The notes beneath the pieces are model-generated. The model did not search any database and was not told where the DNA came from. It was given only the letters and a program-made list of their open reading frames with translations. 42,578 bases of DNA from assembly GCA_016181105.1 (NCBI GenBank), contig JACOZX010000003.1, positions 1 through 42,578 on the forward strand. The letters run 5' to 3'. Below are positions 10,396-42,578 of this stretch, piece after piece (positions within the stretch are counted from its first letter, which is position 1; the number at the start of each line of letters is the position of its first letter). The position numbers were made by a program, and so were the translations under genes. Origin of the DNA: Candidatus Yanofskybacteria bacterium (lineage in GTDB: Bacteria; Patescibacteriota; Minisyncoccia; 2-02-FULL-40-12; IGHO2-12-FULL-4).

Positions 10396-10800
10396 ATGCT
10401 ACAGCCAAAAAGAATAAAACATCGCAAAGTGCATCCGGGCAGACTTCAAAAAAAGGCGACAAGAGGCTTTACTTTAAGCTTTGGCAGTTTTGGCTTAAAA
10501 GCTTTAGAATCTGCTTGGATAAATTCCCGTCAGATAGAATCATCCAGGCGCACCATGACAAGATTTATACAGCGTGGCGGAAAAATTTGGATAAGAATTT
10601 TTCCGGATAAGCCGATAACGGCTAAACCGCCGGAAGTCGGAATGGGTGGAGGAGCCGGAGCTTTGAAGGAATTTGTGGCGCCCGTAGCCGCCGGCAGAAT
10701 TTTATTTGAAATGGACGGTGTGACTGAAAATGTTGCCAGAGAGGCCTTCCGTTTGGCGGCTTTCAAGCTGCCCGTAAAAACCCAATTTGTTAAGAGATAA
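10396..10800 (+). CDS. rplP: 50S ribosomal protein L16
   Basis: MLQPKR.KHRK...GR......G..L.FG.FGLKA......RQIE..RR...R...[21 protein letters not shown]. Confidence 0.96.
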
Positions 10801-11007: not shown

Positions 11008-11262
11008 ATGGACCAAAAAGATAAAACACAACGTATTTTAAAGGGAGTCGTGGTTTCTGATAAAATGCAAAAAACAATTGTGGTTGAAGTCAGCCGTCTT
11101 AGAAAACATCCGAAATACAAAAAATATTTTAAGATTTCCAAGAAGTATAAAGTGCATGATGAACAGAATGAATACCATACCGGAGACAAGGTCTTGATTC
11201 AGGAAACCAGGCCTTTGTCTAAGGATAAAAGATTTAAGGTTTATTCAGGGGTTAGTAAGTAA
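11008..11262 (+). CDS. rpsQ: 30S ribosomal protein S17
   Basis: G.VVSDKM.KTIVV.V.R...HP.Y.K......K...HDE.NE...GD.V.I.E.RPLSK.K.F. Confidence 0.94.
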
Positions 11263-11272
11263 TTTTTATATT

Positions 11273-11638
11273 ATGTTACAGATGCGTTCAATAATTGATG
11301 TAGCGGACAACAGCGGAGCCAAAAAAGTTGGCCTTATTAAGGTTTTAGGCGGTACACGCAAAAGATATGCTCAAATCGGGGATATAATTGTTGTTTCCGT
11401 AAAGGTGGCTGAACCGCGCAAGCAGATAAAGAAAAAAGATGTTGTCCGGGCTTTGGTGGTCAGACAGAGACAGCCTTTTCGCCGTCCGGATGGAAGTTAT
11501 ATCAGATTTGACGATAACGCAGTCGTTATTTTAGAGGGTAAGGAGCCAAAAGGCGGTCGTATTTTTGGTCCAATACCAAGAGAGGTTAAAGAAAGAGGTT
11601 ATGATACGATTGCAAGTTTGGCGCAAGAAGTTGTTTGA
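11273..11638 (+). CDS. rplN: 50S ribosomal protein L14
   Basis: [25 protein letters not shown].....A.IGD.IV.SVK...P........VV.A..VR......R.DGS.I.FD.NA.V. TGA stop at 11636-11638. Confidence 0.96.
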
Positions 11639-11644
11639 GCGCAA

Positions 11645-11876
11645 GTTTAGTCAATATTCCTTTTTTCCGAACGCTCGTTTTCCCCAGCGAGGAAAACTTC
11701 GCTCGTATCAGGATGTGGATTCTGTCCAGCAGACTGTCCAGACCCCGCCATTAAACTTACAGCTTATTCGTCCCTATCGGTCCGAATGGGCTGTAAGATT
11801 CAATGGCTATGCAACCTGCCTGTCGGCAGACAGGTCCACAACCTGATGCGTCTCCAAAAAGCAATATCGTCTAAAC
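11645..11876 (+). repeat. 232-nt hairpin element between rplN and rplX, of the same family as 33506-33668
   Basis: Outer stem 11645-11665 / 11856-11876 (18 of 21 pairs). Inner stems 11707-11719 / 11835-11847 (12 of 13), 11746-11751 / 11802-11807, 11756-11763 / 11790-11797, and 11819-11824 / 11829-11834. Shares collinear blocks with the element after lepA (TTTTTCCGRACGCTYG, CCAGCGA, TTCGCT, TGTGGATT, AAAAGCAATA). Confidence 0.7.
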
Positions 11877-11904
11877 TTGCCGGGAAATCATATAAAAAAA
11901 TCAT

Positions 11905-12222
11905 ATGAAAATCAAGAAAAATGACAAAGTAAAAATGCTTTCTGGAAAAGATCGCGGTAAAACCGGCAAGGTAATTTTTGTTTTAAGCAAAAAGGACGAA
12001 GCAAACAGAGTGGTGGTAGAGGGCTTGAACAAAGTGAAGAAACACCAGCGGCCCAAAAAGCAGGGACAGAAAGGTCAGATTGTTTCGGTAGAAAGAGCGG
12101 TTAGCGTTTCTTCTGTTCAGTTGGTTTGTCCAAGTTGCGGTAAGCCGACCAGAATAAGCCAAAAAATTGAAGGCAAAAACAAGACAAGAATTTGTAAAAA
12201 ATGCGGAGCAATGATTAGCTGA
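11905..12222 (+). CDS. rplX: 50S ribosomal protein L24 (with a C-terminal CxxC...CxxC zinc-ribbon extension)
   Basis: MKIKKNDKVK.LSGKD.GKTGKV......K..V.VEG.N..KKH.... followed by CPSCGKPTR...RICKKCG. Confidence 0.93.
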   Translation: MKIKKNDKVKMLSGKDRGKTGKVIFVLSKKDEANRVVVEGLNKVKKHQRPKKQGQKGQIVSVERAVSVSSVQLVCPSCGKPTRISQKIEGKNKTRICKKCGAMIS

Positions 12223-12239
12223 TAGCTGATAAACAAATT

Positions 12240-12785
12240 ATGTCGTTACCACGCGTACTAACAAAATATAGAAAAGAAGTGATTCCCGCTATGCGGGCCA
12301 AGTTTGGTTACAAGAATGTGATGCAGGTACCCAAATTAGTAAAGGTCGTTTTAAACATTGGTATAGGCAAGCATGTAAAAGATGACAAAATGCTGGCTAA
12401 CATTGAGAAGGATTTGGCTTTGCTTTCCGGACAAAAACCGGTGCCGACTTTTGCCAAAAAATCAATCTCCGGTTTTAAAATAAGGGCCGGCATGAAGATT
12501 GGCTACAAACTGACCTTGCGCGGAAACAGAATGTATGGTTTTATAGATAGATTAATTTCTATTGCGTTGCCCAGAACAAAAGACTTCAGGGGCATAGACA
12601 CGAAGTCTTTTGACGCAAAAAGCGTATTGAACATGGGCATTTTAGAACATAGTGTTTTTCCGGAGATCCACTACGAATCGCTTAAAGACGTGTTTAGCTT
12701 TGAGATAGCGGTAGTGACTAACGCCCGCAAAAAAGAAGAAACAATAGAACTATTAAAGTTGCTGGGCTTTCCGATTAAAAAGTAA
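12240..12785 (+). CDS. rplE: 50S ribosomal protein L5
   Basis: N.MQVPKL.KVV.N.G.G...D.K.L......L..ISGQKP..T.AKKSI..FK.R.GM.IG.K.TLRG..MY.F.DRL. Operon position fits. Confidence 0.96.
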   Translation: MSLPRVLTKYRKEVIPAMRAKFGYKNVMQVPKLVKVVLNIGIGKHVKDDKMLANIEKDLALLSGQKPVPTFAKKSISGFKIRAGMKIGYKLTLRGNRMYGFIDRLISIALPRTKDFRGIDTKSFDAKSVLNMGILEHSVFPEIHYESLKDVFSFEIAVVTNARKKEETIELLKLLGFPIKK

Positions 12786-39078: not shown

Positions 39079-40022
39079 AACGTTTTCTAATCAATAGCTT
39101 GGAAACACTTCCTCATTAATATTTGGTTTGGCGTCTGCAATTTTAATCCAAAATGCAGACGTTTTTCATTGTAATACGGAATATATTTCTTGATGGCAGA
39201 ATTTAAATCTTTCACTGTCCTCGACACCTTGTCTAAGCATTCTTCCTGGATAGTCCGATTGAATCTTTCTAGATGAGCATTGTCATTAGGTCTCCTGACT
39301 CTTGAGTGTCTGTGTATGGAGCATATATGCTCGCTGAATTTCCTTGAAAACTCTGACCCATGGTCGCTTTGCAATACCTTGAAAGAGAAGAGGGCGATCT
39401 TCTCAGCTTGCCGGACAAAATTTAAAGCGGTTCGTGTGTCAGACTTCCTGTATGCTCTGGCATAAGCCCATCGGGAATAGACATCAAGAAGGGTAAAGAC
39501 GTATACTCTTTGACCTTCCGGAGTTAGGAGATGGATTGTGTCGATTTGCACCAAATCTCCTTGTTTTTCGACATTAGGACGTAGCGTTGGAGCATGATAG
39601 CGTTTCCAAGGCGATCTTTTCTTGAGAAGATTAAATCTGTCTAGGGTTCTTTTGACCGAAGACAGAGATGTCTTAATTCCCTCGTTAATTAATTCTTGGT
39701 ATATTACCTCGGCGCTCCTCTTAATGGTCTGTCTCTTTAAGACAATATTAGCGATCATTTCTTTGGTTAGTTGTTTGGGGTGATTATTGGGTCTTGAAGA
39801 AAGTGTCGGTATTGGCCTGTATCCGTATATTTTAGCCTTCTTAACCCATTTGGTTATTGTTCCCGGACTGACTCCTACATATCTGGCCACCTTTCTTACT
39901 CCCCAGCCCCTTCTTACTAGGTCTGCCGCGTCTCGACGAACACGAGGCAGATATGGATTCTTTGTGTATGACATGCCTTTCATTTTACATAAAGGGTGTT
40001 TCCAAGCTATTGAACCATAACG
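39079..40022 (-). mobile_element. Complete IS481-family-like insertion sequence (about 944 bp) with a 6-bp target-site duplication
   Basis: Imperfect terminal inverted repeats with an identical 18-nt core: tcaatagcttggaaacac (39091-39108) pairs with gtgtttccaagctattga (39996-40013). TGGCTA is present at 39073-39078 and 40023-40028. Confidence 0.8.
39087..39983 (-). CDS. IS481-family transposase (HTH plus rve/DDE integrase core)
   Basis: 298 aa. N-terminal HTH (VRKVARYVGVSPGTITKWV), then LVQIDT....(D)...VYSRWAYA...QSDHGSEF (D)...RPNDNAHLERFNRT.QEE (E), and YYNEKRLH.GL...TP. Confidence 0.88.
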   Translation of the reverse strand: MKGMSYTKNPYLPRVRRDAADLVRRGWGVRKVARYVGVSPGTITKWVKKAKIYGYRPIPTLSSRPNNHPKQLTKEMIANIVLKRQTIKRSAEVIYQELINEGIKTSLSSVKRTLDRFNLLKKRSPWKRYHAPTLRPNVEKQGDLVQIDTIHLLTPEGQRVYVFTLLDVYSRWAYARAYRKSDTRTALNFVRQAEKIALFSFKVLQSDHGSEFSRKFSEHICSIHRHSRVRRPNDNAHLERFNRTIQEECLDKVSRTVKDLNSAIKKYIPYYNEKRLHFGLKLQTPNQILMRKCFQAID

Positions 40023-40086: not shown

Positions 40087-40269
40087 TTGAAAGTATTGAA
40101 AGTAGCTGACCTTAAAAAGTTTACACCGATTCAGTGGCTGGCAACTTTTGTTGTGGTAGCCGTCTCGGTCATATTTTTGGCAGGATTTTTGAAAATGATT
40201 TTTCTGCCGGTGGCTATCGGTTTAGTTGTTTGGCAGGTTATAAGGCTTCTCTTGGATAAAAAACACTGA
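40087..40269 (+). CDS. Small two-TM membrane protein
   Basis: The TTG start is preceded by aaggag at the right distance. 60 aa. The stop overlaps the CYTH ATG (TGATG). Confidence 0.5.
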   Translation: MKVLKVADLKKFTPIQWLATFVVVAVSVIFLAGFLKMIFLPVAIGLVVWQVIRLLLDKKH

Positions 40270-40781
40270 TGAAAGAAATTGAAAGAAAATTTTTGGTCAA
40301 AAGATTGCCCCTGGGTTACAATTTTTCAAGGTCTAAAATAAGGCAAGGTTACATTGTAATTTCGCCGGACTTAAAAAGTTGCGTAAGGCTTAGAGAAGAA
40401 AGACATTTGCCTGAAAAAGGATTTAAGTTCAGAGCTTTCAAAGAATTTACACAGACTGTCAAGCGAGGCAGTGGCAAGGTCAGGGACGAGTTTGAAATAG
40501 AACTTACTCAAGAGCAATTTACGGCGCTTTGGCCGACAACGGTCGGAAGAAGACTGGAAAAAACAAGAAATTACTTCTACGGTTCGGGTTTTTACGAAGG
40601 GCAATTTTGTCTTCTGGATGTTTTTAATCGAAATCTTAGGGGGCTGATTCTAGTTGAGGTGGAGTTTAACTCTGAAAAGGAAGCCGATGCTTTCGTCCCG
40701 TTTGATTGGTTTGGAAAAGAGGTTACGGAAGATAAGAGATACAGTAATCAAAGCTTAGCCACATACGGTCTGCCGGTCTGA
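40269..40781 (+). CDS. CYTH-domain (triphosphate tunnel metalloenzyme) protein
   Basis: An N-terminal EIERKFLV motif (the ExExK signature of CYTH) plus the later R/K and E.E (FEIEL; LVEVEF) strands. Confidence 0.75.
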   Translation: MKEIERKFLVKRLPLGYNFSRSKIRQGYIVISPDLKSCVRLREERHLPEKGFKFRAFKEFTQTVKRGSGKVRDEFEIELTQEQFTALWPTTVGRRLEKTRNYFYGSGFYEGQFCLLDVFNRNLRGLILVEVEFNSEKEADAFVPFDWFGKEVTEDKRYSNQSLATYGLPV

Positions 40782-40801: not shown

Positions 40802-40827
40802 AGAGCGTTAACACGCTCTTTTGTTTT
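40802..40827 (+). terminator. Rho-independent terminator after the CYTH gene
   Basis: agagcg ttaaca cgctct followed by tttgtttt. Its 3' half lies inside direct repeat 1. Confidence 0.7.
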
Positions 40828-40847
40828 AAATTATTTTAGTTAAGATG
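40809..40847 (+). repeat. Direct repeat copy 1 (39 nt, identical to 42232-42270)
   Basis: taacacgctcttttgttttaaattattttagttaagatg, checked base by base against copy 2. Confidence 0.95.
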
Positions 40848-40952
40848 AAACTCTTACCCCAATACAACTTCGTCTCTACTGGTGGTGGGGCAATGCTAGT
40901 ATTCCTGGCGGGGGAAGAATTGCCAGGGTTAAAAGCTTTGGAAACAGTCTAA
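40845..40952 (+). pseudogene. pgk: 3'-terminal fragment of a second, diverged phosphoglycerate kinase gene
   Basis: It translates to MKLLPQYNFVSTGGGAMLVFLAGEELPGLKALETV*. This is collinear with the C-terminus of the resident pgk (LDLLGKFSYVSTGGGAMLAFLAGSKLPGLEALGYYD*). No upstream PGK sequence is present. Confidence 0.8.
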
Positions 40953-40994
40953 TTTTGGCTATTTTTCGGGGGTTTTGGCCAGGTAGTACCGACC

Positions 40995-41023
40995 TTGACA
41001 AACTACCATAAAGAGAGTATAAT
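40995..41023 (+). promoter_or_regulatory. Consensus sigma70 promoter (TTGACA, 17-nt spacer, TATAAT)
   Basis: -35 at 40995-41000 and -10 at 41018-41023. Both hexamers match consensus exactly and the spacing is optimal. Confidence 0.65.
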
Positions 41024-41246
41024 TAAAGTATTGAAAAGTGGTTATTCCGGGTTAGTGGGTTAGTCTTTTTCTTTGTTTAACAATCATGGCGATTGATAAG
41101 CAAAGCAGTTGGAATCGCTCTTTTAAAAAAATTTCCACCCCGACGCGAAGGGGACTAATCGGTCGCGAGTAGAGGCAATTACGCTTCTTCGCGGCTAAGG
41201 TAGTTGTAGTAAAAATCAGTCCCGCTAACGGGACAGGGAGAGAAAA

Positions 41247-41468
41247 ATGATAGTAGGAGTAGGAGTGTGGGTAGAAGTAAGAGGAATCGCAACGCATTAT
41301 GATTCCACTAAAAAAATGAATTTACCCGCCCCGGCCAGGGGCCAGCGGGGAGTGGTTGACTCCAACCACCCCAGTGGGATGGTCGGAGTCAGGTTTTCGA
41401 AGTTTGTAGGGTACGGCTATCAGCCGTATTTCTACTACTTCAAAGACAGCGACCTCATTGAGTTGTAG
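41247..41468 (+). CDS. Hypothetical 73-aa protein (island ORF1; possibly a small beta-rich/SH3-like fold)
   Basis: The ATG is preceded by gggagag. GC-richer codon usage than the rest of the window. No family recognised. Confidence 0.5.
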   Translation: MIVGVGVWVEVRGIATHYDSTKKMNLPAPARGQRGVVDSNHPSGMVGVRFSKFVGYGYQPYFYYFKDSDLIEL

Positions 41469-41669
41469 GGGTCGCAACGTCATCACGAAGGGAGACTCGT
41501 CGCAAGACAACATCTCCCTTCCAATCCTTTGTTTGAGAATCAGAAATGATTCGTAAACAAAGTAGTTGGAAATAGTAGTCCTTTGAATGAAAAATGCTGG
41601 CGTGGAGGAATAGTTCTGAAGCGCCAGCCCGTAGCCGAGTTTGACTCGGCGCCCTTGAAAGGAGGGCTT

Positions 41670-42062
41670 ATGAAGTTTGCGAAATTAAGATTAGTTGGAA
41701 ATCGATTGTTTGAGGATACCGGTGAGGTATCCAACCGCACAAGAAGTTATGAGTTGGGAGAGAAGTACAACGGGCGGCTCTACGAGGAGGGGACCGAACC
41801 TTCTCTCCAGAACCACCGGATTACAGTGTGGAGAGGAAGTTTTTGGGAAGTTTGTGTGGAAGGTAGACTCGTCCTGCTTTCCGTCCAGGGCGGTCGCTTG
41901 GTAAAAATTGTGAAACTCGGTCCCAAGACCGAGCCAGTGTTCACCAGCAGGGCAACCGGCGAATACGTAAGAGAAAGCGATCATGCCCCAATGGGGTACC
42001 CCGATACCGAGCAAGGCCGTAAAGCATGGGAGGATTCAGTGCGGGTGGAAAAAGTCGAGTAG
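41670..42062 (+). CDS. Hypothetical 130-aa protein (island ORF2)
   Basis: The ATG at 41670 is preceded by aaaggaggg (strong SD). The longer 41583 ORF start lacks an RBS and runs through hairpins. No family recognised. Confidence 0.5.
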   Translation: MKFAKLRLVGNRLFEDTGEVSNRTRSYELGEKYNGRLYEEGTEPSLQNHRITVWRGSFWEVCVEGRLVLLSVQGGRLVKIVKLGPKTEPVFTSRATGEYVRESDHAPMGYPDTEQGRKAWEDSVRVEKVE

Positions 42063-42198
42063 TTTTTTTCGGTAGTACCGCCGGGATGAAGGCGGGATAA
42101 AAATAAGAGTCGGGCCGATCGCTCCGCTTTCTGAAAGACGAAAGATGCAATCGGGGGCTAGACCGTGCTAGCTATGCAATTATAAAAATTTTTTTGAT

Positions 42199-42226
42199 GA
42201 GCCAGCCCCAAGCTGGCTCTTGTTTT
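42199..42226 (+). terminator. Rho-independent terminator at the island's 3' end
   Basis: gagccagc cccaa gctggctc followed by ttgtttt. Confidence 0.7.
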
Positions 42227-42231
42227 ACCTG

Positions 42232-42270
42232 TAACACGCTCTTTTGTTTTAAATTATTTTAGTTAAGATG
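42232..42270 (+). repeat. Direct repeat copy 2 (39 nt), immediately upstream of tRNA-Gln; probably contains the tRNA promoter
   Basis: Identical to 40809-40847. A TAAGAT -10-like hexamer (42264-42269) lies about 9 nt before the tRNA 5' end. Confidence 0.9.
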
Positions 42271-42278
42271 GAATTAAT

Positions 42279-42352
42279 TGTCGGGTCTGCTAGTGGTAGG
42301 CATCCGCGCTCTGAACGCGGCAACCTTGGTTCGAATCCAAGCCCGACAGCCA
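42279..42352 (+). tRNA. tRNA-Gln (anticodon CUG), CCA encoded
   Basis: Manual cloverleaf: acceptor TGTCGGG/CCCGACA (U1-A72), D arm TGCT-AGTGGTA-GGCA, anticodon arm CCGCG-CTCTGAA-CGCGG, variable CAAC, T arm CTTGG-TTCGAAT-CCAAG, discriminator G, CCA. Confidence 0.88.
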
Positions 42353-42440
42353 TATTGTATGAATCGGAAAGGTTGCCCCTGCCTTGCCGGCAGGCAAGTC
42401 GCGGCTTTCGAGGAGCGTCAAACTTTTAAATAAAATTATT

Positions 42441-42578
42441 ATGTCCGATTGGACACAAGCAAAAAACAATTCAGATTTACCAGAACCGATATTTAAAGAA
42501 ATTTCGGGGCTTTACAAAAACAACATAAAATTTCCGAACCCGAAGCCAGCCAAGATATTTTTATTATGTCCGGTTGGG
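42441..42578 (+). CDS. Hypothetical protein, 5' partial (continues beyond the window)
   Basis: An open frame from the ATG at 42441 to the window end (MSDWTQAKNNSDLPEPIFKEISGLYKNNIKFPNPKPAKIFLLCPVG...). No family recognised from 46 residues. Confidence 0.4.
   Translation, partial: MSDWTQAKNNSDLPEPIFKEISGLYKNNIKFPNPKPAKIFLLCPVG

Follow-up and report, generated by a model that had tools for sequence, protein, structure and literature searches.

The window analysed here is a whole contig of 42,578 bp from a member of Candidatus Yanofskybacteria. It carries a ribosomal-protein and translation region, followed by prfB, ftsE and ftsX. On the 3' side of ftsX lie, in this order, an insertion sequence (IS), a gene for a 60-aa membrane protein, a CYTH gene (40269-40781), a small island bounded by direct repeats and a tRNA-Gln gene with the anticodon CTG. 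The island is the subject of this report. Between its repeats it spans 40848-42231 and contains a remnant of the phosphoglycerate kinase gene (pgk), a promoter, a leader, a first open reading frame (ORF1), a structured spacer, a second open reading frame (ORF2) and a terminator. Unless stated otherwise, the parts of the island, the CYTH terminator and tRNA-Gln lie on the forward strand. An earlier note on this DNA had listed the same parts and had read them as a small integrated module and as a candidate for an undescribed system of RNA and two small proteins. The parts were all recovered, with ORF1 at 41247-41468, ORF2 at 41670-42062 and the terminator at 42199-42219; the two-protein system was not upheld.

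The two direct repeats (TAACACGCTCTTTTGTTTTAAATTATTTTAGTTAAGATG) are identical at 39 of 39 positions and bracket the island of about 1.4 kb at 40809-40847 (copy 1) and 42232-42270 (copy 2), exactly where they had been reported. Copy 1 can be extended to 42 nt, up to 40850, with one mismatch to copy 2. It overlaps the terminator of the CYTH gene, as had been noticed: this terminator (40802-40829, found by a terminator scan) consists of the hairpin AGAGCGT-TAAC-ACGCTCT (40802-40819) and a T-tract, and the loop and 3' arm of the hairpin form the start of the repeat. Copy 2 has the 3' arm of this hairpin without the 5' arm and is therefore taken to be the duplicate of the copy-1 context. It ends 8 nt upstream of the tRNA-Gln gene (42279-42352; ARAGORN, Rfam tRNA at 55 bits), a distance that agrees with the first description. 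No other match to the 23-nt core of the repeat was found in the contig at up to three mismatches, and none is expected by chance. Copy 2 probably carries the promoter of tRNA-Gln, its 3' half lying where a promoter would be expected. This claim stands in a weakened form, since the promoter-like sequence TTAACA-18-TATTTT matches the consensus at only 9/12 positions and was scored on copy 1, copy 2 having GTAACA.

The island was compared with the corresponding loci of related species. Species A is the window organism, species B is GCA_016185525.1 (locus L001) and species C is represented by ten loci (L082-L091), including those of GCA_001794675.1 and GCA_001775785.1. A search of GTDB genomes with CYTH gave only B among close relatives, and C was reached through the 90% cluster of FtsX. 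Exact look-ups with the CYTH protein, ORF2, FtsE and the 60-aa membrane protein of the window gave no further contigs. Species B has the gene order prfB-ftsE-ftsX-TM-CYTH (TM, membrane-protein gene) and no IS. The island comes next, at the site that it occupies in the window, and the CYTH terminator is kept at L001 9525-9542. From this terminator to the stop codon of ORF1 the islands of A and B are 85-95% identical, an AT-rich patch inside the leader being the exception. Downstream of ORF1 they are unalignable except for short blocks. The synonymous divergence (dS, Nei-Gojobori) between A and B is 0.81 for prfB, 0.98 for ftsE, 0.57 for ftsX, 0.49 for CYTH and 0.65 for ORF1. Because the dS of ORF1 is in step with that of the flanking genes, the data point to a single insertion before the split of A and B and not to recent or repeated acquisition, and the island appears to be old and vertically inherited. 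A recent date is contradicted by this comparison, in which the same insert occupies the same site in B, the flanking genes stand at dS 0.5-1.0 and ORF1 is equally diverged.

In species C the gene order is ftsX-CYTH-TM (58 aa), then about 260 nt, then tRNA-Gln(CTG); the distance from CYTH to tRNA-Gln is about 485 nt. The ten C loci contain no detectable island sequence. The C spacer is rearranged and poorly alignable, the order being TM-CYTH in A and B (window 40087-40781) and CYTH-TM in C (L082 11010-11784). For the empty site that the earlier note had suggested looking for, C thus offers a locus without the island but with a rearranged spacer. Because C is without the island and a truncated pgk pseudogene stands at the left edge, insertion in the ancestor of A and B would be the parsimonious reading, with loss in C as the alternative. 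What holds of the original description is a discrete, repeat-bounded, tRNA-adjacent insert that has no mobility gene and is not found in the more distant species C.

The pgk remnant (40848-40952) corresponds to the last ~35 codons of the gene, including the stop codon. Pfam PGK (PF00162) matches it at profile positions 351/360-379 of 379, which are the last 20-29 positions, with an E-value of 1e-4. The C-termini of PGK proteins in the PDB match the longer fragment of the sister species with an E-value of 5e-7, in an alignment that starts at residue 1 (AAADKL...). Homology to the PGK C-terminus was found in this way for a remnant of only 35-40 codons, with an in-frame stop in L001. The fragment had been called foreign; its identity as pgk is confirmed, and no support for a foreign source was obtained. 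Between window 40851-40952 and L001 9577-9678 the remnant is identical at 97 of 102 positions. Identity along the locus is mosaic, ranging from 0.5 to 0.99 in sliding windows of 100 nt with a 95th percentile of 0.96, a pattern that suggests recombination tracts or constraint at the nucleotide level. The high identity of the remnant was considered as a sign of function and was judged not decisive, since the identity of the whole locus is mosaic.

The remnant also bears on the history of the repeats. In the sister species the repeat measures only 23 nt and matches the first 23 nt of the window repeat. The last 16-19 nt of copy 1 in the window stand where the sister species still has pgk sequence: directly after copy 1 of L001 comes CGCGGCGGCAGATAAGCTGTAA, and the PGK frame reads AAADKL*. 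Copy 1 of the window is identical to copy 2 of L001 at 42 of 42 positions. The end of the long repeat falls in an imperfect homology of 10/13 positions (AGTTAAGATGAAA in one and AGATAAGCTGTAA in the other). Because L001 has 23 nt and keeps pgk there, and because copy 1 of the window equals copy 2 of L001, part of the perfect 39-mer in the window appears to be a secondary extension. Conversion of the L001 junction from a native pgk is the alternative. As a signature of the insertion event, the 39-mer as a whole is not supported by the sister species, with its 23 nt followed by pgk sequence. Moreover, conservation between the window and the sister species is 100% for the repeat, the promoter and the terminator of the island, and across the divergence of A and B such conservation means that the identity of the repeat copies does not date the event.

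ORF1 (41247-41468) encodes a protein of 73 aa that is predicted to be beta-rich. It has exactly one known homologue, in GCA_016185525.1 (proteins P0002/P0014). The ratio of nonsynonymous to synonymous divergence (dN/dS, Nei-Gojobori) is 0.12-0.15, with 10/2/24 differences at the three codon positions, because of which ORF1 is taken to be a genuine protein-coding gene under clear purifying selection. Its coding score is +0.19, in frame only. Neither ORF1 nor ORF2 has a match in Pfam, PHROGs, PADLOC or NCBIfam, and sequence searches of the PDB with both were empty. The AlphaFold2 models are poor, with a mean confidence (pLDDT) of 52 for ORF1 and 42 for ORF2, and Foldseek with the low-confidence ORF1 model gave only noise at E>1. 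By these comparisons ORF1 would define a new small-protein family with two members. A palindrome was observed inside the coding sequence of ORF1. At L001 10068-10100 it is perfect over 14-15 bp (-25.5 kcal/mol, z -5.2), and in the window (41357-41389, z -3.4) it has two mismatches from synonymous changes.

Upstream of ORF1 a sigma-70 promoter, TTGACA-17-TATAAT, is located at 40995-41023. The perfect match claimed for it was confirmed (12/12 to consensus), and the relative has kept it, also at 12/12, at L001 9722-9750. A few nt past the predicted transcription start, a 5' hairpin ending in a U-run (41033-41071) folds in both species. Its pairs are kept through G-U/G-C changes, and the folding is weak in the window (-8 kcal/mol, z -1.8) and stronger in L001 (z -3.1); it is a possible attenuator or short RNA. 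The structured leader proper (41133-41246) is identical to L001 at 105 of 118 positions. It is predicted to form three hairpins and a closing helix that pairs with the Shine-Dalgarno (SD) region of ORF1. The consensus fold has 44 pairs, of which one, in the closing helix, is compensatory; the z values of the leader are -2.4 and -3.4. Conserved structured segments were therefore found in the hairpin-rich leader that the earlier note had pointed out. No Rfam 15 family except tRNA was found in the leader or the rest of the window, either at gathering thresholds or at E-values up to 10, the best other scores being 17-23 bits against cut-offs of 37-49. On the minus strand, a terminator-like hairpin with a T-run is seen just upstream of ORF1 in both species (window 41219-41234, L001 9927-9944); it could be the end of an antisense transcript covering ORF1.

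Downstream of ORF1 the island looks different in the two species. In the window, ORF1 is directly followed by module X (41489-41570), a predicted RNA of two hairpins with a folding energy of -37 kcal/mol and z -6.8. Module Y begins at 41634-41673 with the hairpin GCCGAGTTTGACTCGGC, a second hairpin sequestering the SD sequence GGAGGG and an ATG, which is the start of ORF2 (130 aa). After ORF2 come a short 3' block (ATGCAATTATAAAAATTT, 42174-42191) and the intrinsic terminator of the island (42199-42229; scan 42199-42219), which is composed of GAGCCAGC-CCCAA-GCTGGCTC and TTGTTTTACC and is identical in L001 at 32 of 32 positions. The window order is thus ORF1, X, Y with ORF2, short 3' block and terminator. 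The order in L001 is ORF1, 230 nt, Y', X' and terminator. Module X' (L001 11100-11175, z -5.1) stands just before the terminator; its first hairpin (L001 11100-11132) is homologous to the first hairpin of X, and the second has the same architecture and a different sequence. Y' opens with the 5' block of Y and continues with an unrelated ORF of 54 aa and about 450 nt more. This 5' block is conserved within otherwise unalignable sequence and is single-copy in the contig, and the GGAGGG of the second cistron lies in a conserved 6-bp hairpin. The counterpart of the 3' block in L001, at 11075-11087, likewise lies on the right-hand margin of the variable part; the match is short and makes weak evidence.

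ORF2 itself is not conserved in the sister species, where unrelated sequence takes its place. Only self-hits were returned from 5.8 billion clustered proteins and from a full HMMER scan of 1.84 billion representatives, and tblastn gave no match in any relative. Its coding score is +0.15 per codon, with the other five frames at -0.38 to -0.51 and host genes at 0.26 ± 0.07. ORF2 therefore looks coding but is a singleton. Both ORF2 and the 54-aa ORF of L001 begin at the conserved SD and ATG. The latter, which is rich in Gly and Ala, has a sub-threshold match to a precursor of the daptide type of ribosomally synthesized and post-translationally modified peptide (RiPP), with an E-value of 0.019 and 14.4 bits against a cut-off of 40. 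A second link of this ORF (10473-10634, P0015), to a solute-binding protein of 528 aa (P0016) in the same 90% cluster, was rejected as a clustering artefact (BLASTP E 1.6); P0016 comes from an unrelated genome. It appears that only the left half of the island is conserved (pgk remnant, promoter, leader and ORF1), and that the right half changes fast, its parts being replaced and rearranged. Of the undescribed system of an RNA and two small proteins, ORF1 stands by its homologue and its dN/dS; ORF2, a singleton replaced in the sister species, does not.

Several searches addressed mobility and wider distribution. No integrase, transposase, reverse transcriptase (RT), recombinase or toxin domain was found in the island ORFs by profile searches (Pfam, PADLOC, PHROG and NCBIfam), in agreement with the earlier note. 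The island ends have no terminal inverted repeats, the longest exact inverted match reaching 7 nt in the window and 6 in L001. A crude search of both strands of both islands gave no attC-like core pair (RYYYAAC ... GTTRRRY, 50-150 nt apart). Neither the island nor the variable part of the sister species had a blastn match in phages or plasmids; ORF1, ORF2, a 25-mer of the leader and the SD block had none in IMG/VR, and peptide patterns of ORF1 and the 23-nt repeat core had none in JGI metagenome contigs. Self-mobility is argued against by a duplication that is too long for a transposase and by a repeat that does not touch the tRNA gene. Of the two options that had been offered, mobilisation in trans or a remnant, the remnant is the more likely. 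The base composition of the island had been described as visibly richer in GC, and it is so to a modest degree: the contig has a mean of 0.414 and the island 0.479, and values of up to 0.55 occur elsewhere in the contig. A 10-mer (GGTAGTACCG, 40982-40991 and 42071-42080) had been proposed to bracket a module from the promoter to ORF2. Both copies exist, but the right one has no counterpart in the sister species and 17% of shuffled sequences contain as many 10-mer repeats, so that the pair is attributed to chance.

Taken together, the account favoured here, with moderate confidence, is that the island goes back to an old, non-autonomous insertion, made by illegitimate recombination, which had become fixed before two sister groundwater species of Candidatus Yanofskybacteria separated. 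The last ~40 codons of pgk and a small transcription unit downstream of them would have been placed, by copying or by relocation, in the spacer that separates the CYTH terminator from the tRNA-Gln promoter, and microhomology-assisted illegitimate recombination would have duplicated about 23 nt of this spacer. In the window lineage, copy 1 may later have been extended to 39-42 nt by conversion from copy 2, which would have erased 19-22 nt of the pgk remnant and ended in the imperfect homology of 13 nt. Transcription is predicted to start a few nt after 41023, at the consensus promoter. The 5' hairpin and U-run within the first ~45 nt may attenuate it, and the closing helix of the leader would occlude the ribosome-binding site of ORF1. 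ORF1 would be translated into its beta-rich protein of 73 aa, and module X may act in processing or stability. The second cistron would follow, with its SD in the conserved hairpin, before the terminator ends the transcript; for tRNA-Gln, copy 2 would supply a separate promoter.

A first protein that stays constant, combined with a second ORF that can be replaced, suggests a pair of partner and diversifying effector, and the weak daptide match points the same way. It is accordingly possible, at a rather low probability, that the island encodes a small accessory pair, with ORF1 as the constant partner and the second product as a fast-diversifying toxin-, peptide- or immunity-like partner.

Several observations weigh against the insertion account. 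The two species differ at 36-55% of synonymous sites, yet their pgk remnants share 95% identity, which is odd for a decaying pseudogene. A donor locus, with an intact pgk followed by the promoter and ORF1, was not found, and a protein search with the pgk fragment gave no word matches. Only two species bear the island, and the polarity depends on the pgk pseudogene and on a gene order that itself differs in C. The regulatory roles are all predictions from two sequences. Finally, contigs in several samples end exactly on the repeat boundaries, which could reflect excision or island-less alleles.

These contig ends are the basis of an unlikely alternative, namely that the island is a non-autonomous element that remains excisable. 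The 23-42-nt repeats would then be attL and attR, with a recombinase encoded elsewhere that excises and re-inserts the island, or the island would be lost by simple repeat-mediated deletion; filled and empty sites would occur together in populations. A candidate recombinase is provided by related strains, some C strains having a Resolvase/Zn_ribbon_recom gene right after tRNA-Gln. The Logan assemblies of species B belong to one sample series (SRR121134xx). Three of the assembled contigs (L092, L093 and L106) and the metagenome-assembled genome (MAG) of species B at NCBI span both repeats. In other samples, however, the contig with CYTH runs exactly to the end of repeat 1 (L097 and L098), the downstream contig opens with the first base of repeat 2 (L103), and a contig of 1721 nt seen in several samples (L107) consists of 7 nt, repeat, island, repeat and 7 nt. 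A de Bruijn simulation (k=31) of filled and empty alleles gives exactly these three contigs, and a circle junction does not. By sequence, the filled left junction reads …AGAGCGT+repeat+CGCGGCGG and the window-type left junction repeat+TATTTTAGTTAAGATGAAA+CTCT; an empty junction would read TTTGCCATAGAGCGT (B-specific CYTH sequence)+repeat+TATTTTAG…TTGCGGGATCG and a circle junction …TTTTACCCG+repeat+CGCGGCGG.

The same signature can be produced in another way. The 37-nt "empty" junction is also present within the long repeat 1 of the window type, which leaves an identical signature in the local graph, and several other contig ends (8356, 8542, 8577, 8894 and 11228 in L001 coordinates) fall on runs of 31-mers common to A and B. 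Because contig ends coincide with such shared 31-mers, co-occurring relatives can cause the breaks; in one sample, a long-repeat allele is indicated by L104, which starts at 11228. Other shared runs are crossed by L107 without a break, which fits an island-less allele better, although contig simplification leaves room for doubt. As proof of an empty allele the contig-end pattern was therefore downgraded, since co-occurring window-type sequence gives the same signature; it is suggestive of heterogeneity at the repeat junction and is not proof of excision. No contig was recovered that joins CYTH directly to the downstream region. The repeat does not overlap the tRNA gene, a gene fragment stands at the start of the island, and the island is vertically inherited, all of which count against an excisable element. 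Serine-recombinase att sites are not known to yield long identical repeats, which counts against it as well.

According to a second alternative, the island is a small cassette platform. The promoter and ORF1 would be its fixed part, and behind them each lineage would have inserted, at a different position, exchangeable ORF cassettes with a shared 5' end and 3' block. The conserved 5' and 3' blocks around unalignable sequence agree with this, as do the order X-Y in the window and Y-X in L001, the start of ORF2 and of the 54-aa ORF at the same conserved SD and ATG, and the weak daptide match of the latter. There are, however, only two examples, and each locus has a single copy of the motif, with no further copy in the rest of the contig, the fetched loci or IMG/VR. 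Neither attachment cores of the attC type nor an integrase were found, and the 3' block is only 13-18 nt. One rearrangement and one replacement explain the data equally well, and the platform is regarded as improbable. A broader version is nearly as doubtful. It would have the island as a miniature expression platform, excisable or swapping ORF modules with a shared SD-sequestering 5' hairpin and without a recombinase of its own. ORF1 would be the constant part of a new small-protein system with a diversifying partner, in a tRNA-Gln hot spot with a homing endonuclease, serine recombinases and an IS.

A third alternative, also improbable, dispenses with an insertion. The sequence between CYTH and tRNA-Gln would then be the ancestral state, deleted in C, and the repeat would be an unrelated local duplication maintained by selection for terminator and promoter function. 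In its favour, the repeat and the terminator are 100% conserved in species that otherwise differ by 10-18%, so that selection and not recency would keep them identical, and the gene order is rearranged in C. However, a truncated pgk pseudogene abuts the repeat, which marks a junction made by recombination, and the GC content of the island and its GC content at third codon positions are above those of host genes. Lastly, a mis-join at the repeats can be practically dismissed even though the island is at most 1.8 kb from the contig end and only one assembly of this genome is on record, since both repeats and their junctions recur in the MAG of the sister species and in several independent Logan contigs, with the right repeat-island junction conserved to the base.

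The surroundings of the island are themselves variable. The complete IS that the earlier note placed about 0.8 kb upstream was confirmed at 39091-40013, between ftsX and the membrane-protein gene. It measures 923 bp, has perfect terminal inverted repeats of 18 bp and encodes a transposase with helix-turn-helix and rve domains. Because it is present in neither related species, the sister species having the island without it, the IS is a recent arrival unrelated to the island. On the other side, past tRNA-Gln, the 17-mer TTATTATGTCCGRTTGG occurs twice in the window (42436-42452 and 42561-42577), 125 nt apart, with the second copy at the very end of the contig; it may be a repeat that halted assembly. 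In L001, the sequence just after repeat copy 2 (11239-12281) begins with a 24-nt 5' fragment of the original tRNA-Gln, identical to the 5' end of the C tRNA. An ORF of 300 aa with a LAGLIDADG domain follows (Pfam LAGLIDADG_3, 1.9e-10), and its 3' end overlaps a complete, different tRNA-Gln(CTG), so that the tRNA gene looks as if it had been replaced by a homing-endonuclease cassette. The C strains differ right after tRNA-Gln(CTG) (for example L083 12057-13660 and L082 12389-13542), where a serine recombinase (Resolvase and Zn_ribbon_recom), a tRNA-Gln(TTG) with DUF5671 or other content is found. The tRNA-Gln of C is 72 or 74 nt long according to the downstream content. The region 3' of tRNA-Gln in species C thus appears to be an integration hot spot.

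Islets of this kind are common small lineage-specific features of bacterial genomes, and this one has been described in a poorly studied lineage of the candidate phyla radiation. It offers a worked example of a perfect long direct repeat beside a tRNA gene that need not mean a recent or mobile insertion, the repeat being terminator and promoter sequence that selection or conversion would keep identical. It also provides, in ORF1, a new two-member family under clear purifying selection, with a consensus promoter and a conserved structured leader. The tRNA-Gln locus of these bacteria emerges as a hot spot, with rearrangements of four different kinds. Should the population signal of island-less alleles be confirmed, the locus would allow excision without a recombinase to be studied in an episymbiont lineage that is uncultured.

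Compared with known systems, the island fits none of the mobile-element, defence, toxin-antitoxin, integron or RNA families that were tested. For a type II toxin-antitoxin system, there is no domain match and ORF2 is not in the only other locus with ORF1. No RT domain and no Rfam family speak for a retron. A RiPP or bacteriocin locus would be represented only by the sub-threshold daptide match, with ftsEX, CYTH and a tRNA as neighbours. An IS or a miniature inverted-repeat transposable element would be expected to have terminal inverted repeats, of which there are none here, and a duplication of 2-15 bp in place of 23-42 nt. With integron cassettes and clusters of attC sites lacking an integrase (CALIN) the island shares one upstream promoter, promoterless ORF modules with conserved ends and a variable order. 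Unlike these, it has no attC structure or core sites by the crude search and no IntI, and there is one variable module per locus in two examples. More is shared with tRNA-linked islands (attL/attR), namely a discrete tRNA-adjacent block with direct repeats, higher GC content and orphan genes that is missing from a related species. Direct repeats do stand at both ends (39 nt in the window, 23 nt in the sister species). However, there is no integrase, and the repeat contains no part of the tRNA gene, lying in its 5' flank (the spacer between terminator and promoter) and not at its 3' end. A housekeeping-gene fragment stands at the start, the island is only 1.4 kb long and vertically inherited in two species, and the repeat is 23 nt in one and 39-42 nt in the other.

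Homing endonucleases are associated with tRNA regions, T4 SegB being an example (PMC2330249, PMC13096335). In species B, most of the original tRNA-Gln beside the island seems to have given way to a LAGLIDADG gene that brings a tRNA-Gln of its own. If such an enzyme cut here, co-conversion of the flanks would be expected and could explain possible conversion tracts at the repeat; the window, however, has no endonuclease gene. The last comparison is with ectopic insertions. Ectopic templated insertions with a flanking duplication arise by illegitimate or microhomology-mediated recombination or by double-strand-break repair. The island differs from them in that its donor locus was not found and that the insert has long been kept, with a promoter and a gene under selection. 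It shares with them an ordinary chromosomal segment with a truncated gene, short imperfect homologies at the junctions (10/13 on the left, similar terminator tails on the right) and a target duplication longer than any that a transposase makes.

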